A DNA stretch of 64,000 bases from Minisyncoccota bacterium (GTDB lineage Bacteria > Patescibacteriota > Microgenomatia > UBA1400 > UBA12028): contig DNEP01000013.1 in the NCBI GenBank assembly GCA_003487265.1, positions 24,618 through 88,617 of the forward strand. The letters run 5' to 3'. Made by a program: the position numbers and the translations under genes. Shown one piece after another: positions 1 through 12,028 of the stretch (position 1 is its first letter; every line of letters begins with the position of its first letter). The notes under the pieces were generated by a model. It was not told where the DNA came from. It searched no databases and was given only the letters and a program-made list of their open reading frames with translations.

Positions 1-454
1 TCTTTTCTAAAATTTCTGTATACAAAGCTAATTGAACTGCGTAATGTCTCTTCAGTTTGGGACCATTTTCATCACCATTTTCTTCTGTTCCTTCAAACCC
101 TCTACCACTTTTTACATCTACAGCGATATAGGTGCCATCATCCAAACGGCGTAAAAAATCAGGAATTCCCAATAAATTCTCATGTTGAATGACAGGCTGA
201 TACAAAAGTTGGGCACCATCTTCCAATGCCTCTTTAGTATTAATGATTCGTTCTTGTTGATCTCCAATACTCAAATCAACAAAATCACCCAACCTGCTAA
301 CTGCTTTCTGTTCATGTTGGACACCCTTGTCCCAGAGTAATTGAACAAAAGGATTAGTCTCCTTAATTTTCTCTACCTGAGGACCATAAGCGTCCCGCCA
401 CACTCGATGAGGGCATTGAAGATAGTTATAAAGTTTTGATGCTGTGAGTTGCAT
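1..454 (-). CDS. PD-(D/E)xK superfamily nuclease, RecB/Cas4-like (TM0106-like N-terminus); partial, continues past the window start
   Basis: Not in the ORF track because it is truncated. Manual translation of the minus strand from ATG at 454-452 gives MQLTASKLYNYLQCPHRVWRDAYGPQVEKIKETNPFVQLLWDKGVQHEQKAVSRLGDFVDLSIGDQQERIINTKEALEDGAQLLYQPVIQHENLLGIPDFLRRLDDGTYIAVDVKSGRGFEG...KLKRHYAVQLALYTEILEK with no stop up to base 1. It shows an hPD motif (GIPDFL) and a DxK motif (AVDVKSG), and an N-terminus of the form LYxYLxCPHRVW typical of the TM0106/RecB-family nucleases. The start lies 3 nt after the helicase stop and in the same frame. Confidence 0.5.
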   Translation of the reverse strand, partial: MQLTASKLYNYLQCPHRVWRDAYGPQVEKIKETNPFVQLLWDKGVQHEQKAVSRLGDFVDLSIGDQQERIINTKEALEDGAQLLYQPVIQHENLLGIPDFLRRLDDGTYIAVDVKSGRGFEGTEENGDENGPKLKRHYAVQLALYTEILEK

Positions 455-457
455 ATT

Positions 458-3400
458 TTAACTTTGTGAATTCTCCACTAACCAGTTTCCTTTTTCGCGT
501 CTACCTAGAGATATTTTTCCAATGACTTCCTCATCCTTTATTAGAAAAATAAACCCTGCATAGCGAATTTTCAAGCCTAACCACATCTTCACCTCCATAC
601 ATACCGCCAACTTCTGTTTATCTGGAGATAGGAACGCAGAATCCACCCTGCTGCCTTTCATCTTTAGGATTGTTGAAGATTTTTCTGCGACTACTGCCCA
701 AATCTCCTCCTTGTCAATCGTCCTTCTAATACTCCCTAAAAGGTCAACAAGCGGCTCTAATTGGCTTGGTTTTTTTCTAGTCACATACTCTATGTAAATA
801 GGAAGGCCTGTTAGGTTGCAAACTTTAAGATCATCTGGATGGCATTCCCGATCACTCCAAGAGCACTTTTTAGCTTCTACAGGAGAACAGAAATTACCAT
901 TAACTGATCTAACTGCTTCCTTTTCAAGCAATCGAGCATCAGAAATACTGCTTGATACAAAGTATTTTTTAAGTGCCTTTTTACCTGAAAAGGCTGACTT
1001 CTCCAGCTTTGCTGGCAAAACCCTTTTGTTAGACACCTCACAAGTTTCAAGCAAACCTGGAACAACAATCTTCTTAGTTAACTCACAGGTTTCAGACTCT
1101 GTTGATAACAACGGTTGCCCTGTTTCGGAACAGAAAATAAATTCTTTTTTGTGACCAGTCTTTTTGGAAACCACTGATTGTAATTGTTCATCCTTTCTAT
1201 ATTTCTTTCCTGATATTTGACTAACTTCTAATTCGTCTTCGAGAACTTCTGAATCAGTAAACTCACACCTGCCAAAAAAATTAGGTTCTGCCTGTTTACC
1301 ACTTAATGCAGAAGTTTTAAGTAGCGATTTAGAAACAAGTTCACCAGTAATTGATGACTTTTCAACCTCGTCACTAAGAATCTTTCTCCCAGAAAGAGAA
1401 CAAGTCACGATGTACTGAGGTAGAGCTTTTCTCCCACTCTCCTCAGAACTTACAAGTAGATGACGCAATACTCTGTGTCCACTAATATCACAGATAGCTA
1501 AACAATCATAAGGAACCGTCTTCCCAGTTGATTCACATTTGAATAAATCGGGTGCTTCGATTACCTCTTTTTTAGAAGGTACAATCTGAATTGTACTTTT
1601 GTACTCAAAAGTGGAGTCAATATTGTATGAAACATCCATTTGTATTTGGCGATTCATTGCGCCTGCAAGTCCTACCAAGCTCATTTCAACTCTTGGCGTA
1701 AACTCATCTTCAAGTTTTTTCTTTTTTCGCAAATCACTGCCTGCGGCTGCCACTTCCTGAACCATTCTCTCGTTATAAAAACGACAGAATTCATCTATTC
1801 CCTCATCAAGCATTGCCTTTTCAGCCAACAAGTCTGGGACTACTCCGGTCTCTAACGGTCCATCAATAAGCTCTCCCAATGATTTGAGACTCTTTGGTTT
1901 AATTTCTACTCTATGGTCTTGATCTAAGCATTCAACTTTAACCAAACGTTCATAACTATCATGGGCTACGGTTGAGCGAACTCTCACAAGTGCCATACCT
2001 GAAAAACAATTCCAGACTTTTGTCGTCTCTTTCTTTTTGAAGTCACCACCAAATTTGCTGATCCAGTTCTGAACGGCTTGATGTGTGTCTGATTCAAGAT
2101 CCAAATCTAGATCCTTTACATCATGAAGTCTATTACTGATTACTTTGCTCACTAAACGCTCAAAAGCAGTTGTTCCCTGTGCGTAAAGAACGCCATCTAT
2201 TCGACCATTACTTTTCTCTTCAAAATAAATTGACTCTTTCTCATCGTCAAGTTCACAAAGATATACTCCTTCAGGCTGAGGAGTAAGTTTGGAACCAAAG
2301 TTTTTTTTAGCTGTCAAAACAAAACTGCATATATCCATCGAGCGATCTAGTTTCGGCAAACTCGGACATCTAGGTCCAAATTCGGAAGGATCTCCCATAG
2401 AGCCAAGCATAGAACTTATGTTTATCTGTTCTTCTTCCAATTTAAGTTTGGCTTTCGATATGCTTTCACTTGCTGTTTTTGTTGCCGTCTCAACATCTTT
2501 TCCTGCTAACGAATCAACTACTAACCTCCTCACCATTTCCTCAAAGTCAACTGATCCATTTTCATCCTCATCCAAACCGGACGCCTCAAGCATTGCTTCA
2601 ACATCACCAATTGCCTGTGATGCCATTTGGAGCTTTTCCATAAGCCTAGCAACGATGTATTCCTCAAATGTATTTGACAAGATAATATTGAAAATACTTA
2701 CCTTTGCATGCTCGGAGGCCAACCTCTGAATCCGACCTACCCTTTGTTCAACAATCATTGGATTCCAAGGCAAATCGTAGTTAACTAGCACATTAGCTGC
2801 TTGAAGATTTATACCTTCAGCTCCAGCTTCTGTAGAGACAATTACATGAATGTCCGGAGGTTTTTGTTTGAACTGAGCTATAGTTTCTTGATTTCTTAGC
2901 CCAGAATCACCATTAATTAACCCACAAGTAATGTTCCGTTTCCCCAAAAATTCCTCAATTGTGGTTTGAGTTTCGCGACGGCCAGTAAAAATAACTAATC
3001 TCCAGTCATCAGGTCTTTCAGCTTCAAGTTTATAGATAAGAGTACTAAGACCTTTTAGTTTTGCCGAGTCGCTCATGTTATCAACAACAGCACTAACGTC
3101 CAATGATAATGACTCTGGTATTGTTTTATTACGAGCCATATTTTTTAATTGAGCTGACAAAGCATGAGGACTACTTGTGAGTGCTTGGAGGATTGAGATT
3201 TGTGCTAGACGATTCAGCTTTTGAATTGGCTCAGCAATGATGTCAATTAACTTCAATTCGTCAGGGGTCGGTGTCACCTTGTGAAGCTGTACAGTTCTCT
3301 CAGGAAAATAAAGATTTGCGTCTGCCCGTCTTACCCGCGACATATAACCATAAACAATTGATCGAAACTCATCTTTCATTGATGGCACTAATTGGCGGGC

Positions 3401-4168
3401 TTTTGTCTTGGCATCCGCAATGAATCTGCGGGCAAAAATCCCCGGATTCCCGAAGGGATTTTCGTGCCCTCTTGCAGTAGTCAGTAAGTCAACTAGGGAA
3501 TAAATATCCCACAGCCTATTTTGAATCGGCGTAGCGGTAAGCATGAGGACATATTTAAATAATCGATCCTCTAATGCCTGCTTAAAACGAACCGCCCTTT
3601 TAGGGGGAGGGTCAACACCATACAAATTCCGTAGCTTATGAGCCTCATCTAAAATCAACATTTCGTAACCAACGTCAGAAATTTTTTCGAGATGTAGACG
3701 GGCAGAATCATAAGTGGTTATAACTGCTCCCAATTCTCTTGGTGGAGTAGCTTTGATTAAGTCTCTGCCAGTAGCAATAACGGAAGATATACCAAACTTA
3801 GTTTCCAACTCTTCCATCCATTGAAACATTAATAATTTAGGACAAACAATTAGTATTTTTGTTACTCTGCCACGAGCCATTAATTCACTTATCACCAATC
3901 CAGCACTAATTGTTTTACCTAAACCAACATCATCAGCTAATAAAGTAACGGGCAATCTGCGACAAAATGTAATCAGGTTCGTGACTTGGTGATAATATGG
4001 CTCCAATAACTCACTCCATTTCTTTTCGGAGCGCATATCATCACGGTCTTCAATAACAATTGGCTCTATAAGATCCCACTCAATCCCAGCCACGTACAAA
4101 TTAAATTCATCGCTGTTTTTTGCTCTTTGGAGTAATTTTGTCTGGAGTGGTGGTGAAGAGTTGCTCAT
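458..4168 (-). CDS. SNF2/Rad54-family DEAH-box helicase (ATPase core aa ~55-520) with a ~700-aa uncharacterised C-terminal extension containing degenerate Cys-x-x-[ST]-G repeats
   Basis: ORF track, 1236 aa. Motif I is DDVGLGKTISAG, motif II is LILDEAHKLRN, the Q-motif region is YYHQVTNL, and helicase-C motif VI is QRVGRIQRLASEH. The C-terminal half shows no recognisable catalytic motif. It carries about 10-13 degenerate ~13-aa repeats, for example CDISGHRVL, CSLSGRKIL, CEFTDSEVL, CSETGQPLL, CELTKKIVV, CEVSNKRVL and CNLTGLPIY. Confidence 0.85.
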   Translation of the reverse strand: MSNSSPPLQTKLLQRAKNSDEFNLYVAGIEWDLIEPIVIEDRDDMRSEKKWSELLEPYYHQVTNLITFCRRLPVTLLADDVGLGKTISAGLVISELMARGRVTKILIVCPKLLMFQWMEELETKFGISSVIATGRDLIKATPPRELGAVITTYDSARLHLEKISDVGYEMLILDEAHKLRNLYGVDPPPKRAVRFKQALEDRLFKYVLMLTATPIQNRLWDIYSLVDLLTTARGHENPFGNPGIFARRFIADAKTKARQLVPSMKDEFRSIVYGYMSRVRRADANLYFPERTVQLHKVTPTPDELKLIDIIAEPIQKLNRLAQISILQALTSSPHALSAQLKNMARNKTIPESLSLDVSAVVDNMSDSAKLKGLSTLIYKLEAERPDDWRLVIFTGRRETQTTIEEFLGKRNITCGLINGDSGLRNQETIAQFKQKPPDIHVIVSTEAGAEGINLQAANVLVNYDLPWNPMIVEQRVGRIQRLASEHAKVSIFNIILSNTFEEYIVARLMEKLQMASQAIGDVEAMLEASGLDEDENGSVDFEEMVRRLVVDSLAGKDVETATKTASESISKAKLKLEEEQINISSMLGSMGDPSEFGPRCPSLPKLDRSMDICSFVLTAKKNFGSKLTPQPEGVYLCELDDEKESIYFEEKSNGRIDGVLYAQGTTAFERLVSKVISNRLHDVKDLDLDLESDTHQAVQNWISKFGGDFKKKETTKVWNCFSGMALVRVRSTVAHDSYERLVKVECLDQDHRVEIKPKSLKSLGELIDGPLETGVVPDLLAEKAMLDEGIDEFCRFYNERMVQEVAAAGSDLRKKKKLEDEFTPRVEMSLVGLAGAMNRQIQMDVSYNIDSTFEYKSTIQIVPSKKEVIEAPDLFKCESTGKTVPYDCLAICDISGHRVLRHLLVSSEESGRKALPQYIVTCSLSGRKILSDEVEKSSITGELVSKSLLKTSALSGKQAEPNFFGRCEFTDSEVLEDELEVSQISGKKYRKDEQLQSVVSKKTGHKKEFIFCSETGQPLLSTESETCELTKKIVVPGLLETCEVSNKRVLPAKLEKSAFSGKKALKKYFVSSSISDARLLEKEAVRSVNGNFCSPVEAKKCSWSDRECHPDDLKVCNLTGLPIYIEYVTRKKPSQLEPLVDLLGSIRRTIDKEEIWAVVAEKSSTILKMKGSRVDSAFLSPDKQKLAVCMEVKMWLGLKIRYAGFIFLIKDEEVIGKISLGRREKGNWLVENSQS

Positions 4169-4226
4169 AATTTACATTTTGGTCGCATTGTTTCTTTCAT
4201 TAATTTAATCTTTTGTTTGTCTTCAT

Positions 4227-5732
4227 TTAAGCTTTACTGTTACTAGAAAGCTCTTCAAATTTTGCAGCCATAGTAGGATTGTTTTTGATTAGCCGTTTTA
4301 CCGACACGTTCTCTACCTTGTTACCGGCAGTAAGCAGATGCTTGTTAGACAGGCGTAAAGCCTCCTTAATGCCCTCCAACTTTTTGATGGTCAGATCAAT
4401 ACCATCCATAGCATCTCGAAACTTGTTACTAGAATCCTTGACGTTCCTCATGAAGCCATCTTGAAAGAGTTGTAAATCATTCTCGAAGTTGGTGACATCT
4501 ATGTCCTTATCACGAACAAGTGCTAACTCAGCCTTATATTTCAACGAGTCTAAAGCACCATTGCGCAACAGGGTTATGATTGGAATGAAAAATTGTGGAC
4601 GAACAACATACATTTTGTCGTATGCATAGGATACATCGGTAATGCCGGCATAGAGTTCGTTGTCTGCCTCAAGTACGCTTACCAAAACTGCATGCTGACA
4701 TTTCTTTTCAATACGATCTCTATCAAGCTTCTTGAAGTAGTCTTCGTTTTTCTTCTTTGCGGCGGTATCGTCAGATTCGTTCTTCATGTCAAACATGATC
4801 GATAAGATTTCGTTGCCTGCCTCATCAATTTCACGATAGATATAATCACCCTTACCGCCGGCACTAGCATCATTGTCTTTTTCAAAGTGCACATTCCTAA
4901 AAGCACCAGCGGATTGCCACTGCCTAAATGCAATCTTGCAGTGCTCCTCAAGGCTTCTACCCAGTAGTTTAACTGACTGCTTGGACTTGAAGTCCTTATA
5001 CTGGGCAATCTGCTCATCTTTGAGCTTTAGTTCAACCTCATGCCTTTCTTTGAGTGAAGACTCTAACGCCTTCTGTTCATGGTCTTTAATTTCCAGCTTA
5101 CTAGCCAGCTCATCGCGTTCTTTTTCGACTACATTAACAGCCTTAGTCACAGCCAACTCTTTTTCTGTTACAGATGACTCAAGCTTTGCACTAAGTTCAT
5201 CTCGTTCTTTTTCTACTTTTGATACAGCTTCAGTAACAGCTAACTTCTTATCAGTGTCCGCAGCTTCCAGCTTGGCTTGGAGTTTAGCAATCTGAGCATT
5301 CTTTTCAACCTCGGCGGACTCAAGTTTTGCCTGTACCCCAGCCATCTCGGTTTCTTTTTCAGCTAGGGTTTTGGCAAGCAAAGCGTCTATTTCCGCCTTC
5401 AATTCGGCTATTTCTGCATCTCTTTTTACAATGTCTACTTGTAACTCACTTTTTATATTTGCCTCAGCAAGTTTAACAGCACTTTCTTTTTCTGCTTTGA
5501 GCGTAGCCAGTTCCTTGTCCTTTTTGACAATGTCTGCCTGCATTAACTTTTCAACATCGACCCTAGCGAGTTTAATCGCATTCTTTTTTTCTTTTTCAGC
5601 CAGTTCTAGTCGTTCGTGGAGTTCTTTATCAAACACATGATCACGGACTTGCTTGAGGATATCGGCAAATCCGGCCTCATCAGCCTTAAAAACCTTTTTG
5701 CATTGTGGGCATATAATATCGTTCATAGTCAT
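4227..5732 (-). CDS. Zinc-ribbon plus long coiled-coil protein, DUF2130-like (tentative); the C-terminal globular domain may be PD-(D/E)xK-like
   Basis: ORF track, 501 aa. The N-terminus MTMNDIICPQCKKVFKADEAGFADILKQVRDHVFDKELHERL matches the characteristic start of the DUF2130 family as I remember it. Residues ~40-240 are heptad-rich coiled coil with internal tandem repeats. The C-terminal ~250 aa is globular, with GDYIYREIDEAGNEILSIMFDMKNE, a possible D...hhhhDxK pattern. Confidence 0.5.
   Translation of the reverse strand: MTMNDIICPQCKKVFKADEAGFADILKQVRDHVFDKELHERLELAEKEKKNAIKLARVDVEKLMQADIVKKDKELATLKAEKESAVKLAEANIKSELQVDIVKRDAEIAELKAEIDALLAKTLAEKETEMAGVQAKLESAEVEKNAQIAKLQAKLEAADTDKKLAVTEAVSKVEKERDELSAKLESSVTEKELAVTKAVNVVEKERDELASKLEIKDHEQKALESSLKERHEVELKLKDEQIAQYKDFKSKQSVKLLGRSLEEHCKIAFRQWQSAGAFRNVHFEKDNDASAGGKGDYIYREIDEAGNEILSIMFDMKNESDDTAAKKKNEDYFKKLDRDRIEKKCQHAVLVSVLEADNELYAGITDVSYAYDKMYVVRPQFFIPIITLLRNGALDSLKYKAELALVRDKDIDVTNFENDLQLFQDGFMRNVKDSSNKFRDAMDGIDLTIKKLEGIKEALRLSNKHLLTAGNKVENVSVKRLIKNNPTMAAKFEELSSNSKA
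5100..5275. repeat. Imperfect tandem duplication (2 x ~87 nt) inside the coiled-coil CDS
   Basis: The DNA units catcgcgttctttttcgactacattaacagccttagtcacagccaactc and catctcgttctttttctacttttgatacagcttcagtaacagctaactt are ~75% identical. They encode the 29-aa repeats KLAVTEAVSKVEKERDELSAKLE and ELAVTKAVNVVEKERDELASKLE. Confidence 0.5.
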
Positions 5733-5764: not shown

Positions 5765-6784
5765 TTACTTTTGTCTTTTCTTTTCTCCTTTGATCAACCG
5801 CTTCACCACTCGGTCAAAATCAGACTCAATTGGCTGGATCTTGTTAAACTCTCTATATTCAGCCAAGGCTTTCTTATCAGCATCATCCTTTGAAACTTTT
5901 CCTTTATCGTCCAAAATTCTGTACTCATTAAACGTCAGGAATTTATTAACACTTTCAGCGAACTCTTCCATGTTGAACGTCTGTCGATTTTCAATCAGAT
6001 TTTCGATGTAATCAAAAAACCCAGTGACAGTTCGTTCAAGTTTTTTAATCTGATCTTCTGGTAAATAATTCTTGGCTACCGTAACATCAGTAGATAAAAT
6101 TCTGCCTGCTGGTGCTTGTTTCCAAGTGGTCAAGCCCATATGGGGTTGGCGACGGTCTGCCCGCTCATCGATCAACTCAGCTGCAGTGTGACCAGTGATG
6201 GCGTAATGGAACTTGTTCTGAACAGTGGCAAAGAAATCTTTAGTCGTTTGGGAGTGAGGATCGTAGTCGATACTACATTCGGCAAAGATATCGGTAATTT
6301 GCTGATAAATACGGCGCTCGCTTGATCGAATCGAACGAACTCTTTCTAGCAACTCACGGAAATAATCCTGACCAAAAACTTTCTCTCCTTGCTTAAGGCG
6401 ATCGTCATTTAGAGCAAAACCCTTGATTATATACTCTCGAAGCACTTGGGTAGCCCAAATGCGGAACTGAGTTGCTCGTCCAGAGTTCACCCGATAACCA
6501 ACAGCAATAATGGCATCAAGGTTATAGAAATTGGTTAGATATTGTTTTCCATCTGTGGCAGTTATCCGGATTTTCCGGACAACTGAATTTTCCTCAAGTT
6601 CTTGCGTTTTGAAAATGTTTTGCAAATGTTCATTAACAGTACGAACATCTACATCAAACAGCTCTGCCATCATTTTCTGAGTCAACCACAATGTTTCGTC
6701 TTGAATAAAAACATCCAGCTTTATATCCCCATTGGGTGAGGTGTAAAGAATAAATGTTGATGTTTGCGTCAGTTCATTCGCCAT
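5765..6784 (-). CDS. RhuM-family protein (Virulence_RhuM; Fic/DOC-associated DNA-binding family)
   Basis: ORF track 5765..6862, trimmed to the internal start MANELTQ at 6784. Family-typical segments are LTQKMMAELFDVDVRTVNEHLQNIF and AIIAVGYRVNSGRATQFRIWATQVLREYIIKGF. The longer 6862 start would overlap a convincing HTH gene in another frame. Confidence 0.7.
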   Translation of the reverse strand: MANELTQTSTFILYTSPNGDIKLDVFIQDETLWLTQKMMAELFDVDVRTVNEHLQNIFKTQELEENSVVRKIRITATDGKQYLTNFYNLDAIIAVGYRVNSGRATQFRIWATQVLREYIIKGFALNDDRLKQGEKVFGQDYFRELLERVRSIRSSERRIYQQITDIFAECSIDYDPHSQTTKDFFATVQNKFHYAITGHTAAELIDERADRRQPHMGLTTWKQAPAGRILSTDVTVAKNYLPEDQIKKLERTVTGFFDYIENLIENRQTFNMEEFAESVNKFLTFNEYRILDDKGKVSKDDADKKALAEYREFNKIQPIESDFDRVVKRLIKGEKKRQK

Positions 6785-6785
6785 A

Positions 6786-6953
6786 TTACTTCTTTTCAAT
6801 AAATCTCCTAATATCCTCAAGACGGTAACGTCTAATTTTTCTCTCACCGATACGTACCGCAACCAAAAGGCCTTTGCGATCCCAAAGACGAAGGGTGTTT
6901 GGGTGGACGCTCAGTATCTCTGCTGCTTCTCTGAGTTTTAACAGTTTTTCCAT
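6786..6953 (-). CDS. Small helix-turn-helix DNA-binding protein, excisionase/MerR-like (HTH_17 type)
   Basis: Not in the ORF track. Manual translation gives MEKLLKLREAAEILSVHPNTLRLWDRKGLLVAVRIGERKIRRYRLEDIRRFIEKK, 55 aa, with a classic Xis/MerR HTH (AAEILSVHPNTLRLWDRKG). Its TAA stop abuts the RhuM ATG (TAATATG). Confidence 0.6.
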   Translation of the reverse strand: MEKLLKLREAAEILSVHPNTLRLWDRKGLLVAVRIGERKIRRYRLEDIRRFIEKK

Positions 6954-7069: not shown

Positions 7070-7834
7070 ATGAAAACACAGGCAATCATCTTCGATTTAG
7101 ACGGTACCGCCGTCGATTCCCCTGTCCAAAAGCTCCCCACCCCCCGCCTCATTCAAGCAATTCAAAATCTTCAACAGCACTATTATTTGTGCGCGGCGAC
7201 TGGACGTTGCTGGACGTTTGCGAAACAGATTGTGCGCGCACTTCATCTAGAGGATCTTTGTATTATTTCCGCTGGCACGCAAATATGCGATCCAAAAACA
7301 GGAGCGATTCTTTGGCAAAAAAATATTCCCGCGAACGCACTTAAAGAGGTAATTGCGGTTTTTTCTGAAAACGAATCTCAAAAAATCATTTTTAATGATT
7401 ACACTGAGGATGACTATTTTTATGGTGGCGTTTTGCCAAAAGAATTTTCATTTTCACAAGAGGTCAACTGGATGTCGCAGAGTTTTGTTCCCGACGAGTT
7501 GGCAATTCAGCTTCATCAGAAACTCTCACAGATTTTGGGAATCACCTGCGTCATGGTTGTATCTCAAAAACCAGGCTGTCGAGATCTGCACATCGTGAAT
7601 GACCGCGCCACAAAAGAACACGCGATTGCCGAACTCCTCCAACGACTTGGTGTTCATAAGAAAGACACCATTGGCATTGGCGATGGTCACAACGACCTTC
7701 ATCTTTTTCAAGCGGTTGAGAGAAAAGTCGCGATGGGGAATGCGGTGACGATCTTGAAGCAAAACGCGGATCTCATCATTGATTCTGTACAAAACGACGG
7801 TCTCGCGCAGTATTTTGAGTCGTTATATGAATAA
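7070..7834 (+). CDS. HAD-superfamily hydrolase, Cof-like (HAD-IIB) phosphatase
   Basis: ORF track 6971..7834, trimmed to MKTQAIIFDLDGT. HAD motif I is DLDGT and motif IV is GIGDGHNDLHLF. Confidence 0.75.
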   Translation: MKTQAIIFDLDGTAVDSPVQKLPTPRLIQAIQNLQQHYYLCAATGRCWTFAKQIVRALHLEDLCIISAGTQICDPKTGAILWQKNIPANALKEVIAVFSENESQKIIFNDYTEDDYFYGGVLPKEFSFSQEVNWMSQSFVPDELAIQLHQKLSQILGITCVMVVSQKPGCRDLHIVNDRATKEHAIAELLQRLGVHKKDTIGIGDGHNDLHLFQAVERKVAMGNAVTILKQNADLIIDSVQNDGLAQYFESLYE

Positions 7835-8444
7835 AGCACTTTTCCAGAAATATTTGATTGTTTTGATTATTTTGATCGTGACGCTCACAAATTACCAACT
7901 CGCAAAACACACACAACAGTTTATCCTTCGCGCATTCCCATCATTTTCGTATATGTGGAGTCTTTCACTCCCTTGGATCGCAATAGGAATTATTCCGTTT
8001 TTATGGATATCAAGAAAAGGTTTCTCTTTAGATTGTAGGTATATTCAAAAAAATATTCGTTCATTACTTTTTTATTCTCTTTTGTTAGGACTTGGCTTAG
8101 GATTATTTATTGCCCTACGTTTTTCTTCCTCATTTCACGCTGTAAAGTATCCCTTTATTTTTTCCGTGATTACTCCCATTGTTGAAGAACTTATTTTCCG
8201 AGGATGGATCTATTCGGTAGTCGAAAAACACATGAAGATTCACCCCGTATTGGGGTCTGCGGTTCTTTTTGGTCTCCATCATCTTCAATATTTTGCGTAT
8301 CGGTTTACTCCATTTGCAATTTTTCAGATTGTATATACATTTTTTCTTGGGCTTATTCTTGGAAAAATGCGACAAAAAAGCGGAAGCATCTATTTCTCAA
8401 CTTTTTCTCATATGATTATTAATGGAGCGAGTTATATCTGGTGA
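7827..8444 (+). CDS. CPBP-family intramembrane metalloprotease (CAAX protease-like)
   Basis: ORF track 7779..8444, trimmed to MNKALFQ, whose ATG overlaps the HAD stop (ATGAATAAA). Multiple TM helices. Motifs are EELIFRGWIY (EExxxR), FGLHHLQY (FxxxH) and FSHMIINGASY (HxxxN). Confidence 0.7.
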   Translation: MNKALFQKYLIVLIILIVTLTNYQLAKHTQQFILRAFPSFSYMWSLSLPWIAIGIIPFLWISRKGFSLDCRYIQKNIRSLLFYSLLLGLGLGLFIALRFSSSFHAVKYPFIFSVITPIVEELIFRGWIYSVVEKHMKIHPVLGSAVLFGLHHLQYFAYRFTPFAIFQIVYTFFLGLILGKMRQKSGSIYFSTFSHMIINGASYIW

Positions 8445-8454
8445 GATGTACAAT

Positions 8455-10098
8455 ATGAAACTTGCTCTTTTTCTCATCTTCATTAGCGTTTTTTCATTCG
8501 CTCTGATTTTCTTTTTTGAGGATAAGCCCTATCTTTTTTCGACCGAACAAAAACAAATATCAATCCAAACCACAGTCGATCCCTCGCTCGAACAATCACA
8601 ACCGTCATATCTCATCATGAATTTTTCAACGATGAATGAGTTGAACTGGAACGCACCCGAATCGGAATGGCAATCGGAAATCAAACCAAAAGTTGTCAAT
8701 GAACTTCAAGATATGATCTCAAAACTTTCTCGTGGAAACACACAAACAAAACTCGGATGGAGCACCTTGAACGAGTACATGAACATTCCTGCGGATACTC
8801 CTTCAACAACCTCTGCGTATGTTGTGAAAATCAAACGAATTTTTGAAATTTCAGAAGAACTTGAGTTACCTGTTTTTATCCCACTCAATGGTTTTCAGTG
8901 GTGGGATGAACAACCCGAACTTTACAATTGGTGGGATAACGATGGGACAAAAACCCCCGCCTCGTTTTTCGCGCGTCAAGACAATCCCGAAGAGTTTAAA
9001 CAACGATTCATTGCTGGATATGATCCAAACAATAGAAAAAATGTTGACTGGAAAAGTTGGTCAGAACCAATGACATGGAACTATCGCAATTGGGGATCGG
9101 GTGAATTTATCCTCGCTCCGCCCCCAAATATTGCACGAGGATCTGCATATCGCAAAGTGCTTGAAGCACGATACAGCGCAATTATGGATCAAATGCGATT
9201 CTCTCTTTCTGAGCTTGAACAAAAAAACAAACAACATCTATTTCTGGGGTTTTCGATCGGAACCGAGTTAAGTTTGAATGCCTCAACAACTCCAAAAGAT
9301 GAATTTGAGCCGTATGGGTATCGAGCGTTATTAGATTCTGGGTTAAACTCGAATTCGAATCAGCAATCAATTCAAAACATGCGAACCGAAGTTTTGCACG
9401 AATACATAGAATCACTTGCGCGTATTTCTGCACGAAAAGGGTTCGATTCAAACTACATTCACGCGCATGTCTGGGGTGAAGAAGATCCAAAAAGTAAAAA
9501 ATACGCACCGTATGCACAAGCAGCTTGTTCCCCGTACGTCATTCCAAGTGTGAGCATATACGGAAACGAAAAAAATCCAATGAGCTCCAAACAGTGGAGT
9601 TCGGCATTGCAAACATGTAACACACCAAACTGGTCGATCGTGGAAACCTCGATTTCTGCAGATACTGCCACTCAGGAATTGAGCAATCTTTTTTCATCAA
9701 AAACTCCTCCAAGAATAATCGTTCTCTATAACTGGAGTGAGCATCAAGACCCATCGCAACAACAGGCAATTGCGAACTATGTACAAAAAAATCATATCGA
9801 AAAATGCCAACCACCTATTCTTATCAGCAGAAACGATTTTCTAACCCACAATCCCGACTCACTTTTCATTACCCTTCCTCCGTCAGCAACCTCAACAGCA
9901 ACCCTCACAATCTCAAAAGGATTTTCAACAAACGCGCCGATTCAAACGTATCCCCTCGCTCAAACAACCACCGTTTCGCTACCTCAGGGAATGTACTCCT
10001 GGTACATCACAGCGCCAACGTGCGATAATACACGAACATCGTGGTCGCAACCTCGACTGATTACCGTTCCTCTGACGTTTTCGAATCAGAGAAACTAA
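8455..10098 (+). CDS. Hypothetical Trp-rich exported/membrane-anchored protein
   Basis: ORF track 8422..10098, with start trimmed to MKLALFLIFISVFSFALIFFF (signal/anchor) after a GGTGAGA Shine-Dalgarno-like sequence. No recognisable catalytic motif. Confidence 0.4.
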   Translation: MKLALFLIFISVFSFALIFFFEDKPYLFSTEQKQISIQTTVDPSLEQSQPSYLIMNFSTMNELNWNAPESEWQSEIKPKVVNELQDMISKLSRGNTQTKLGWSTLNEYMNIPADTPSTTSAYVVKIKRIFEISEELELPVFIPLNGFQWWDEQPELYNWWDNDGTKTPASFFARQDNPEEFKQRFIAGYDPNNRKNVDWKSWSEPMTWNYRNWGSGEFILAPPPNIARGSAYRKVLEARYSAIMDQMRFSLSELEQKNKQHLFLGFSIGTELSLNASTTPKDEFEPYGYRALLDSGLNSNSNQQSIQNMRTEVLHEYIESLARISARKGFDSNYIHAHVWGEEDPKSKKYAPYAQAACSPYVIPSVSIYGNEKNPMSSKQWSSALQTCNTPNWSIVETSISADTATQELSNLFSSKTPPRIIVLYNWSEHQDPSQQQAIANYVQKNHIEKCQPPILISRNDFLTHNPDSLFITLPPSATSTATLTISKGFSTNAPIQTYPLAQTTTVSLPQGMYSWYITAPTCDNTRTSWSQPRLITVPLTFSNQRN

Positions 10099-10114
10099 TG
10101 TACAATACCTCTGC

Positions 10115-10185
10115 GCCTTCTTAGCTTAGTGGCAAAGCAGCGGTATCGTAAACCGCGGACGACAGTTCGATTCTGTCAGAAGGCT
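10115..10185 (+). tRNA. tRNA-Thr (anticodon CGT)
   Basis: Manual fold. Acceptor GCCTTCT/AGAAGGC, U8A9, D-stem GCTT/AAGC, anticodon stem GCGGT/ACCGC with loop ATCGTAA (anticodon CGT), 4-nt variable loop, T-arm GACAG-TTCGATT-CTGTC, discriminator T. CCA is not encoded. Confidence 0.75.
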
Positions 10186-10188
10186 CAT

Positions 10189-10905
10189 ATGACATCACAT
10201 TCTTATAGTCGAATCGAGCGAAAACGGTCAAAAAGGGCCATTTTTCAGTCATTTTTGCTGATTTTTGGCGCATTGGTTTTCCTGTTTATATTTGTTGTGT
10301 TTCTTATTCCGCAAGTTATCCGCATCTATGATGCGATGACATCTTCAACAGTCTCGTTTGATGACAAAGATACCATTCCACCACAACTTCCCGTCCTCGA
10401 TCCTCCACTTCCCGAAGCAACGTTTAGCGGACAACTCGTGTTGAAAGGATACACCGAACAAGATGTCAAGGTCGCTTTGGTTATTGACGGTGAGTTACTG
10501 CAAGAAGTTCAAACCTCTCCCGACGGGTTTTTTTTGTTTGATGAGCTCGATCTTTCTCAAGGAGAATACACTATTCAAATCACCGCAGAAGACGCAAATA
10601 AGAATGTTTCAAAAACATTTGAACAGCATTTCACCATCGATACCGAAACACCAAAACTCGAAGTACTCACACCCACCGACGGAACTACCATCACACGCCG
10701 ACGTGATCAAACAATCCCCATCGAGGTTCAAACAGAGGCCTCGGCAACCGTAACGGTGAATGGACGTCAAATATTTGTCGACATCACAGGAAAAGCGACT
10801 GGGTCATACTCACTCGTCGAGGGAGAAAACCTTCTTGTTATTGAATCAAAAGATGTCGCCGGTAATATCACAAAACAAGAACTCAAGGTCCAGTTCAGTC
10901 CGTAA
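10189..10905 (+). CDS. Hypothetical membrane-anchored protein with beta-rich (Ig-like) extracellular region
   Basis: ORF track 10129..10905, trimmed because its 5' part overlaps the tRNA. Start MTSHSYS is preceded by AGAAGG. One TM segment (FLLIFGALVFLFIFVVFLI), then a Thr/Val-rich beta-type sequence. Confidence 0.4.
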   Translation: MTSHSYSRIERKRSKRAIFQSFLLIFGALVFLFIFVVFLIPQVIRIYDAMTSSTVSFDDKDTIPPQLPVLDPPLPEATFSGQLVLKGYTEQDVKVALVIDGELLQEVQTSPDGFFLFDELDLSQGEYTIQITAEDANKNVSKTFEQHFTIDTETPKLEVLTPTDGTTITRRRDQTIPIEVQTEASATVTVNGRQIFVDITGKATGSYSLVEGENLLVIESKDVAGNITKQELKVQFSP

Positions 10906-12028
10906 GCTGTATTGAGTTACTCATCGCCTGCAAACTCATCAGAAAAAACAGCCCTATCGAAGTGAAAAAGATTGCGTTCATTTGACTCGCAATACACAAA
11001 AAAAGAATTGCTCCAAACACCTCTGGATGTTTGAATGAATCGCGCAACAACTGAACAAGCGCGTATCCAAACACAAGAATCCCAATCGCCCCCGTAAACT
11101 CAAAGACTTGTACAAACACATTATCTGGTGCTGTCGCGTGCGAAATTGTTTGGTTTTCGCTCAACTGAAGCGTTCGACGTAAATACCATCCTTTTCCGAA
11201 AATCGCTGTTTTCCATGTGATACTTTGAAATGAACTCAAAAAGATCGTTGTTCTCGCATTCACACTCACGGTTCGCTCAAGTAATGTTCCCTCACTTGCT
11301 CTGCGAGGTAAAAACGGAATCGCGACAATAAACAACAAAAGTGTAATCAGACCATAAGATAATAGTTTTTTCCGATACACAAGTACAAGAGTAAATATTG
11401 TTACAAAAAATGCAACATATGAACTTCGTGAGTATGTTAACAGTAATAGACCAACGTGAGCTAGGGTAAGAATCAACGAACCTGCATTTTTTTTCTGCAA
11501 CAGAAAGATTGCACCAACACCCGCGATTAGCGCGGTAAACGGTGGATCCAGAACGGTAGAGATTGCTCGAAAATAGTGATCGTCATATCCTTCGGCAAAA
11601 AATGAGCGCAAATCGGGAACAAAAAGATATTGAATAAAACCCACAAAAACAATTCCTGTTGTGTACAACAAAAGGGCGCGAAGGATATCTTTTCCAGCTA
11701 TTTTTCCGTTTCGAACAGCAACGGCAAGAATGCTGCCAAAAAAAGCGTAAAGGAGTGCTCGAAACATATACACAAATGAAAGAATCGTTCGATCTATAGA
11801 AACTTCCGCATGATTCACCACAACACTCAGTACCATAACAAAGAAAAACATTTTCCAAGAGTTTGGAATGGAAATGAAAATTGTTTTTCCCCATGTTCGC
11901 AACCCCTGAATCACGAAAATCAACACCCCGCAGTCAAGAAAACTCACGCGGAGTCCAGAAAGAGGAGAGAATAAGAACAACTGTCCAAAAATACCAAGAA
12001 ATGCGATTGTATATAGAAGTGAGTTCAT
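10895..12028 (-). CDS. O-antigen ligase/polymerase-like (Wzy_C) polytopic membrane protein
   Basis: ORF track 10895..12097, trimmed to MNSLLYT (ATGA overlap with the upstream gene's stop). About 10 TM segments, with the Wzy_C hallmark LTYSRSSYVAFF. Confidence 0.6.
   Translation of the reverse strand: MNSLLYTIAFLGIFGQLFLFSPLSGLRVSFLDCGVLIFVIQGLRTWGKTIFISIPNSWKMFFFVMVLSVVVNHAEVSIDRTILSFVYMFRALLYAFFGSILAVAVRNGKIAGKDILRALLLYTTGIVFVGFIQYLFVPDLRSFFAEGYDDHYFRAISTVLDPPFTALIAGVGAIFLLQKKNAGSLILTLAHVGLLLLTYSRSSYVAFFVTIFTLVLVYRKKLLSYGLITLLLFIVAIPFLPRRASEGTLLERTVSVNARTTIFLSSFQSITWKTAIFGKGWYLRRTLQLSENQTISHATAPDNVFVQVFEFTGAIGILVFGYALVQLLRDSFKHPEVFGAILFLCIASQMNAIFFTSIGLFFLMSLQAMSNSIQLTD

Follow-up and report, generated by a model that had tools for sequence, protein, structure and literature searches.

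What is the long C-terminal tail of a bacterial SNF2-family ATPase built of, and what might it do? The question is raised by a 64,000-nucleotide (nt) stretch of DNA from a Minisyncoccota bacterium (assembly GCA_003487265.1, contig DNEP01000013.1, positions 24,618 to 88,617 of the forward strand), referred to here, at its full length, as the window. Near its first edge, the minus strand encodes an SNF2-family ATPase of 1236 amino acids (aa), whose tail occupies aa 521-1236 (nt 458-2608), exactly where an initial annotation of the window had placed it. We find the tail to be a conserved module built around an array of 15-residue units, predicted with very high confidence to form a regular chain of small hairpins. 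Across the family, the array varies widely in length between constant flanking parts, and the gene recurs beside genes for PD-(D/E)XK nucleases. Together, motor, tail and nuclease may form a helicase-nuclease module directed against foreign or damaged DNA.

A conserved tail outside the domain databases

The initial annotation left the tail unassigned, and this description holds: Pfam, NCBIfam, PADLOC, PDB sequences, Foldseek and the literature all gave no match, and no confident profile match to a characterised domain emerged from the searches. The Pfam scan that it had proposed returned nothing past ~aa 550, even at E≤1, and the last ~715 residues match no entry in Pfam, NCBIfam, PADLOC or PDB. 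Homologues are equally bare; 23 of them, their tails scanned singly against Pfam, gave no significant match, and variants with long N- or C-terminal extensions carry no additional fused Pfam domain. A tail-only profile run against PDB sequences retrieved chance-level matches only (designed armadillo proteins, and MfpA at E=0.17).

Conservation of the tail is nonetheless extensive. A word-indexed search with the last 645 residues retrieved 172 homologues at E≤1e-3; among the matches listed (the best 120 of the 172), identity is 39-65%, in most cases along almost all of these 645 residues, and Pfam recognises no domain in any of their tails. The tail-only profile, searched against 1.84 billion cluster representatives, matched 766 of them at E≤1e-3. 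The module starts at ~aa 590-616, right after the ATPase core, in most full-length members, and later in a minority with longer N-termini. Its taxonomic distribution is patchy, with genome matches in Patescibacteria, Nitrospirota, Acidobacteriota, Alpha- and Gammaproteobacteria, Planctomycetota, Verrucomicrobiota, Ignavibacteriota, Elusimicrobia, Lentisphaeria and Desulfobacterales.

A 15-residue repeat forms the core of the tail

The repeat within the tail, first described as having a period of ~13 residues, has a period of 15. BLOSUM62 autocorrelation of aa 871-1135, scored against 500 shuffles, peaks at lag 15 (z = 10.4) and again at lags 30, 45 and 60 (z = 6.3-7.3); lag 59, beside the lag-60 harmonic, gives z = 3.7, and all remaining lags give 2 or less. 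A pentapeptide-repeat β-helix (period 5, A(D/N)LXX) was considered and rejected, lags 5 and 10 giving z = 1.2 and 0.7; the MfpA match mentioned above is the sole trace of this kind.

Seventeen units span aa 878-1131, starting at aa 878, 893, 908, 923, 938, 953, 968, 983, 998, 1013, 1028, 1043, 1058, 1073, 1088, 1102 and 1117, with an irregular, 14-residue unit at aa 1088. All motifs quoted in the initial annotation are present in the protein sequence, but its list overlooked the units at 878, 908, 1073 and 1102, and CSPVEAKKC (aa 1094), which it counted as a copy, lies out of register inside the irregular unit from 1088. Period and register are conserved in homologues: alignments of 16 and of 80 sequences hold the register and, unit by unit, the choice between Cys and Ser.

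The array in the window follows the consensus [C/S]-x-[VIL]-[S/T]-G-[K/R]-x-[VA]-L-x-x-E-L-x-x. A profile pooled from 5000 units of 266 family proteins gives [C 59% / S 41%]-[E/A]-[V/I/L]-[S 57% / T 43%]-G(72%)-[K/R]-R-[V/A]-L-P-[D/S]-E-L-x-x, with ~4 hydrophobic residues per unit. Basic residues are concentrated at position 6 (K or R, 58%) and position 7 (R or K, 36%), and positions 11 and 12 are acidic. The array as a whole is ~30% charged with a net charge near zero (+4 to -20 by protein), and its aromatic content is low. The DNA contains no 45-nt tandem repeat, the periodicity being confined to the protein level, which excludes recent slippage; the units are thus old and maintained at the level of the protein.

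Predicted architecture of the tail

AlphaFold2 (AF2) models the tail (aa 561-1236) with a predicted local distance difference test score (pLDDT) of 89.9, and the repeats alone (aa 860-1140) with a score of 94.3. Four parts are resolved: a helical linker, an α/β domain, the repeat array and a small C-terminal domain. The linker helix comprises residues 2-27 of the aa 561-1236 model and is followed by a stretch of pLDDT below 50 (model residues 29-34). The α/β domain holds long β-hairpins and three invariant motifs, VRxTVAHDSYERL (aa 730-742), EFxRFYxxR (aa 793-801) and FTP (aa 823-825).

Per-unit DSSP assignment of the model shows that every array unit consists of a 6-residue [CS]xx[ST]G[KR] loop followed by two 3-residue strands with a 3-residue 3-10 turn between them. 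The initial annotation had proposed structure prediction as a check for a solenoid or zinc-ribbon array; in the model the repeats do form a regular array, with a per-unit pattern that fits zinc-ribbon or zinc-knuckle hairpins.

Neither the whole-tail model nor the repeat-only model has a Foldseek match in the PDB at E≤1e-3. The best weak matches of the repeat-only model are tandem LIM, PHD and CHY fingers and LRP2, all at E≥0.08, among them the tandem LIM structure 2xjy_A (probability 0.84, E=0.08, template-modelling score 0.34). In the viral library BFVD, 21 matches were obtained at E≤1e-3, with the whole aa 561-1236 model rather than the array alone as the query; they include uncharacterised phage and giant-virus proteins, a phage 'LIM domain containing protein' (E=5e-4) and adenovirus fibres, the last with low probabilities (0.16-0.33). 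A 'prokaryotic metallothionein' matched at E=4.1e-3.

The closest, though weak, structural likeness in this set is with tandem LIM proteins (LMO2/LMO4:LDB1; PDB 2xjy and 1rut), which share with the predicted array serial β-hairpins of ~14-15 residues and a knuckle turn starting C-x-x-, and with its proposed shape the form of an extended rod, used in LIM proteins as a docking rail. The two differ in that LIM domains place two Cys/His in each knuckle and one Zn across two knuckles, whereas the array has [C/S]xx[S/T] and a Ser-Glu pair; no LIM, zinc-finger or zinc-ribbon Pfam model matches the protein, even at E≤1. They also differ in size, the array reaching 72 units; tandem LIM proteins have about 4-16 hairpins. 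Choline-binding repeats and the CROPs of clostridial toxins, which stack three hairpins per turn, are likewise tandem short β-hairpins and recall the three-unit super-period of Cys described below, but they have no sequence or significant structural match to the array. Those repeats are ~20 residues long, rich in aromatics and extracellular.

Cysteine, serine and glutamate positions argue against a general metal scaffold

The initial annotation raised the possibility of a metal-binding scaffold. A regular array with knuckle-like turns is seen in the model, but the ligands are wanting. The ligand set of a zinc ribbon, zinc knuckle or LIM domain (CxxC or CxxH, with four ligands from two knuckles) was rejected, as a unit contains at most one Cys. 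Over the 5000 pooled units, position 1 is Cys or Ser in the proportions given above, and position 4 is Ser or Thr in 100%, with Cys at ~0%.

Ser at position 1 covaries with Glu in the following unit. A unit with Ser at position 1 is followed in 89% of cases by a unit with Glu at position 12; after a unit with Cys at position 1, that site holds Leu in 29%, Glu in 18%, Gln in 10% and Phe in 8%. The protein in the window contains five such Ser-Glu pairs (S908-E934, S953-E979, S983-E1009, S998-E1024 and S1058-E1084). Mutual information over 3414 four-unit windows is dominated by the distinction between C-type and S-type units, with couplings mostly between n and n+1. Judged from sequence, the behaviour of position 1 fits that of a structural hydrogen-bond or packing position rather than a metal ligand, and a general metal scaffold for the array is unlikely.

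The Cys residues are nevertheless far from randomly placed. Nine of them (C878, C889, C893, C923, C968, C1028, C1043, C1094 and C1117) are invariant among orthologues. A three-unit periodicity of Cys marks most of the long arrays examined, with an autocorrelation of +0.5 to +0.78 at lags 3, 6, 9 and 12, and is weak or absent in two. Three Ser units in a row occur in 14 of 3415 contexts, and 3-4 consecutive Cys units lie near the C-terminal end of all arrays examined. In the clade of the window, both array ends carry extra Cys/His residues (C878/C889/C893/H903 and C1094/C1102/H1110/C1117), where one or two Zn ions could be bound. These end residues are not kept in distant members: the equivalent of C889 is Trp in one (P0128) and Ala in another (P0130), and that of H1110, read from sequence, is Leu in P0128.

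Array length varies between constant flanks

Array lengths in 91 near-full-length relatives form a nearly unbroken series between 13 and 72 units. For most relatives the part before the array is constant at ~870-920 aa, a length exceeded by N-terminally extended variants, and the part after it measures ~100-120 aa in most, whatever the array length (87-184 aa, with two outliers). Apart from P0136, every array examined opens with the Cys/Ser pattern CCSCSS or differs from it by one unit, and all end Cys-rich; the conserved starts and Cys-rich ends point to expansion in the middle of the array. At the upper extreme, the 2098-residue P0128 holds ~72 units organised in super-repeats of 181 aa (12 units). 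Very long arrays of this type, with the Cys pattern C-S-S, are seen at aa 896-1980 of P0128 and also in P0130 and P0127.

The array is also better conserved than its surroundings. Within the 17-unit clade, identity to the window is 55% in the array vs 42% in the α/β domain and 38% in the C-terminal domain, which indicates that the array is not a neutral spacer.

The ATPase core and its defence relatives

The tail is attached to an intact motor. Pfam places SNF2-rel_dom at aa 75-309 (PF00176, E=2.1e-28, 99.7 bits against a cutoff of 24.9) and Helicase_C at aa 381-483 (PF00271, E=2.7e-18, 66.7 bits against a cutoff of 23.5). ATPase motifs I (GLGKT), II (DEAH), III (TATP), V (STEAGAEG) and VI (QRVGRIQR, aa 475-482) are intact, and with both lobes matched the protein belongs to the SNF2/SWI2 ATPases of superfamily 2. 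Mean identity of the core to 15 homologues is 74%.

NCBIfam and PADLOC matches are confined to this core and consist of defence-system SNF2 models, DrmD (E=5.5e-58 and 3.1e-52), BrxH (E=1.6e-56), DpdE and ZorD (E=4.6e-15), all far under their family cutoffs. An assignment to DISARM DrmD was rejected by score (NF038317, 197 bits vs a cutoff of 610; NF038318, 178 bits vs 950; ATPase core only) and by context: the neighbours are RhuM, DUF2130, a Cas4-like nuclease and a HAD hydrolase, and no drmA, drmB (DUF1998), drmC (PLD) or methyltransferase gene adjoins. Zorya ZorD was rejected likewise, with 54.6 bits vs a cutoff of 1500 (NF041790), no nuclease domain in the protein and no ZorABC genes nearby.

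The pairing of an SNF2 motor with a nuclease effector is nonetheless shared with ZorD (SNF2 with an Mrr-like nuclease), DrmD (with DrmC) and HKD/PLD-SNF2 proteins. DISARM, Zorya and BREX differ from the present locus in that none of their partner genes is in the window, and the nuclease here is of a Cas4-like plus RNase H-like type. Coupling of a motor to a RecB/Cas4-family PD-(D/E)XK nuclease is also found in AddAB, RecBCD and Dna2; those, however, are superfamily 1 motors that unwind DNA from ends and have no hairpin-repeat stalk, whereas the motor here is of the SNF2 type. SNF2 enzymes typically move along duplex DNA and leave its strands paired.

Four independent homologue genes shift frame within the first ~100-140 codons, just past motif I and each at a different place (Table 1). 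As a result, gene callers report N-truncated proteins of 1040-1120 aa that lack Walker A. Pseudogenisation, sequencing error or a switch may lie behind the frame changes; the gene in the window is itself intact, without a frame change.

Cas4-like nucleases are recurrent neighbours

A nuclease open reading frame (ORF) starts 3 nt past the SNF2 stop codon, a gap that suggests translational coupling. It matches TIGR03491 (E=3.6e-10), Cas4 (E=1.8e-4) and PDDEXK_1 (E=0.0018), with a weak match to the AddA nuclease domain; these scores fall under the cutoffs because the ORF is cut by the window edge. Against our own hidden Markov model (HMM) of nucleases neighbouring homologous helicases it scores E=2.3e-63, and it is 47-62% identical to the nucleases beside such helicases in other genomes.

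The association recurs across the family. DUF2779 accounts for 15, and RNase_H_2/TM0106 for 13, of the 39 neighbours that lie tightly next to homologues on the same strand (together 28), with RmuC, DUF2130 and DUF6602 found once each. By our own HMMs, 32 of 84 loci, the window included, have a TM0106- or DUF2779-type nuclease ORF no more than 200 nt from the helicase gene, on one side or the other. In a metagenome-assembled genome (MAG) of Pyrinomonadaceae (locus L047, 6653-11929 on the plus strand), a single 1758-aa ORF carries a TM0106-type nuclease N-terminal to the SNF2-stalk protein, a fusion seen in this one case, from a MAG in which an assembly error is possible. The TM0106 and DUF2779 families combine a Cas4-like domain with an RNase H-like 3'-5' exonuclease (PMC3985635; PMC13621843).

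In Bradyrhizobium sp. STM 3562 (locus L001, 13391-17957 on the minus strand), the partner nuclease gene is convergent to the helicase gene. It is apparently split by insertion sequence (IS) elements, with transposase genes lying between its PDDEXK and RNase_H_2 parts.

Proposed reading and its rivals

We propose that an intact SNF2 motor, a translocase of double-stranded DNA, carries the tail as a conserved accessory module of four parts. The array of this module would be a chain of 15-residue hairpins in which zinc-knuckle-like turns, largely stripped of metal ligands, are stabilised by a thin hydrophobic seam and by hydrogen bonds from Ser/Thr. Such a chain would make a long stalk or docking rail, rich in charged residues, that keeps the C-terminal domain off the motor, and block duplications may have adjusted its length, which runs from ~13 to ~72 units in the family. 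The SNF2 protein would then be the motor subunit, and the neighbouring, interchangeable PD-(D/E)XK nuclease, here of the TM0106 Cas4-like type, its effector, the two acting on foreign or damaged DNA within a mobile or defence island. Such a helicase-nuclease module is probably linked to defence or mobile elements. Of all this, the repeat and its conservation, the modelled structure, the range of array lengths and the adjacent or fused nuclease are observed, and the stalk, the lack of metal, physical contact with the nuclease and a role in defence are inferred. As a joint proposition, tail module, metal-free stalk and helicase-nuclease action on foreign or damaged DNA seem to us about evenly poised between right and wrong. 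A more specific version, possible but distinctly doubtful, makes the array a metal-free zinc-knuckle descendant that serves as a ruler or reach-arm in an unrecognised two-gene system of SNF2 and Cas4/DEDD proteins against mobile genetic elements. Stalk length, perhaps tens of nanometres, would then fix the position or timing of DNA cleavage with respect to the motor or, alternatively, the way motors are tethered through the C-terminal knob.

Several observations weigh against the stalk and defence proposal. About 60% of the loci have no recognisable adjoining nuclease, and one homologue (L006) sits among housekeeping genes with no nuclease alongside. The C-terminal module matches no PADLOC model, and no homologue was found among IMG/VR viral contigs or PLSDB plasmids, so that the case for defence is a contextual one. 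The recurrence of Cys at every third unit and the rarity of Ser triplets hint that Cys is specifically required, for which the model offers no reason. An array that outconserves its flanks argues, as far as sequence comparison goes, for specific binding surfaces rather than a passive spacer.

The last of these points is also one of the supports of the rival to which we give most weight, a nucleic-acid-tracking or -sensing array in which the G-[KR]-[KR] loop tips along the rod would touch the DNA backbone and read length, ends or modification during translocation by the motor, much as the initial annotation had suggested. Basic residues do dominate unit positions 6 and 7, purifying selection on the array exceeds that on the flanking domains, and the array is joined to a DNA translocase working with a nuclease. 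Yet the acidic positions 11 and 12 bring its net charge to about zero, aromatics are few, the repeat is unlike any known DNA-binding repeat by PDB profile, Pfam or Foldseek, and a more than five-fold range in unit number (13-72) would be unusual for a site-specific reader; we consider this explanation unlikely. A true metal scaffold, next in weight and in our view improbable, would have Cys of neighbouring units and conserved His chelate Zn or Fe-S in a genuine zinc-ribbon or LIM-like chain. It could draw on the resemblance of the local fold to tandem LIM, PHD and CHY fingers and to viral LIM and metallothionein-like proteins, on the strict positioning of the nine invariant Cys, on the three-unit spacing of Cys in long arrays with near absence of Ser triplets, on the extra Cys/His at both ends of the array in the clade of the window, and on the run of Cys units near the C-terminal end of all arrays examined. 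Set against these are the limit of one Cys per knuckle with none at position 4, the frequency of Ser at position 1 with its covarying Glu, the different residues at end Cys/His sites in P0128 and P0130, and the lack of any zinc-finger or zinc-ribbon Pfam match at E≤1.

The metal-free stalk also competes with an oligomeric, fibre-like shaft, in which the repeats would fold only as a dimer or trimer and the C-terminal domain would act as a knob, tethering two or three motors. Its period of 15 is that of the triple β-spiral of fibre shafts, and its layout is that of adenovirus and reovirus fibres: a constant N-terminal part, 15-residue β repeats whose variable copy number sets the length, and a constant C-terminal globular domain, here of ~100 aa. 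Adenovirus fibre models appear among the BFVD matches, and ~4 hydrophobic residues per unit make a thin core for a metal-free monomeric rod. However, the Foldseek probabilities of the fibre matches are low, and the monomer is modelled very confidently (pLDDT 94). Viral fibres are obligate trimers with another strand and turn pattern, whereas the present protein is cytoplasmic and fused to an ATPase; the triple β-spiral repeat is unlike the predicted 3-residue strands split by a 3-10 turn. We place this shaft third among the rivals and think it a poor prospect. That the repeat is a chance or low-complexity feature, or a neutral disordered linker, might be argued from the degeneracy of the units and the lack of a repeat in the DNA, but the autocorrelation (z = 10.4), the confident model, the register kept across phyla and the higher identity of the array than of the flanking domains leave it a negligible prospect.

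Significance

The SNF2 motor and the logic of motor plus nuclease are of known kinds. No description of the tail module, the variable 15-residue repeat or the solo-Cas4 pairing was found in Pfam, NCBIfam, PADLOC, the PDB or the searchable literature, the last covering the SNF2-tail family and its pairing with TM0106, Cas4, COG2251 or solo-Cas4 nucleases. If the proposed metal-free stalk is correct, the array would be a new structural repeat family, with the shape of a zinc knuckle and no zinc; the repeat occurs in hundreds of protein clusters from at least 10 bacterial phyla, including the genome-reduced Patescibacteria. With motor and C-terminal domain both constant, the more than five-fold range of repeat number would amount to a natural experiment on how stalk length controls a DNA motor. 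The repeated nuclease pairing and the one fusion would mark a candidate helicase-nuclease system missing from catalogues of defence systems, and would give a first clue to the function of TM0106/COG2251 and DUF2779, two uncharacterised families of 'solo-Cas4' nucleases.

Genomic context

Table 1. Coordinates of the features discussed; positions are those of the window unless a homologue locus is named.
Feature	Position (nt)	Strand	Basis and remarks
SNF2-family ATPase gene, 1236 aa, complete	458..4168	−	ORF list; stop codon 458-460
SNF2 ATPase core, aa 57-520	2609..4000	−	Pfam, NCBIfam, motifs I-VI read in sequence
Helical linker, aa 521-612	2333..2608	−	AF2; one long helix, low-confidence loop aa 589-594
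Conserved α/β domain, aa 613-862	1583..2332	−	AF2 and invariant columns; no Pfam/PDB match
Repeat array, aa 863-1131	776..1582	−	Half-unit, then 17 units; autocorrelation, AF2, DSSP, pooled profile
C-terminal α/β domain, aa 1132-1236	461..775	−	AF2; two helices and 5-strand antiparallel sheet
Cas4-like PD-(D/E)XK nuclease, TM0106/COG2251 type, at least 151 aa, runs off the window	1..454	−	Profiles, own HMM
DUF2130 gene, 501 aa, N-terminal CPQC motif and coiled coil	4227..5732	−	Pfam E=2.4e-71
RhuM-family gene, head of same-strand string	5765..6862	−	Virulence_RhuM E=6.4e-107; PADLOC PDC-S05 E=1.5e-154
Frame changes in homologue genes	L001 ~9682-10456; L002 ~9663-10420; L004 ~7450-8210; L005 ~4470-5250		

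Upstream of the helicase, on the same strand and across a 58-nt gap, lies the DUF2130 gene, of a family classed in the PD-(D/E)XK superfamily (PMC3424549), and 32 nt further upstream the gene of the RhuM family, which PADLOC carries as defence candidate PDC-S05. RhuM, DUF2130, helicase and nuclease may form a four-gene operon. A promoter-like site is present at 7011-6983 (minus strand).

The closest match to the helicase, in a Ca. Blackburnbacteria MAG (locus L008), has the same DUF2130 layout; along the entire gene, identity is 79% at the protein level and 84.5% at the DNA level. Window positions 449-4169 align with 8227-11949 of that locus, the flanks being unalignable except for ~250 nt near the RhuM start. 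Downstream of the helicase, a DUF6602 protein with a D...EVK motif stands there in place of the TM0106 nuclease. The high identity of the gene, the unalignable flanks and the DUF6602 substitution suggest a mobile cassette with swappable nuclease partners. Integrases, resolvases, IS elements, prophage, and Upx-like and SLFN-like helicase genes are found near homologues.

Elsewhere in the window, a 558-aa ORF without a Pfam match (8422-10098, plus strand) is directly followed by a tRNA-Thr (CGT) gene at 10115-10186 (plus strand).

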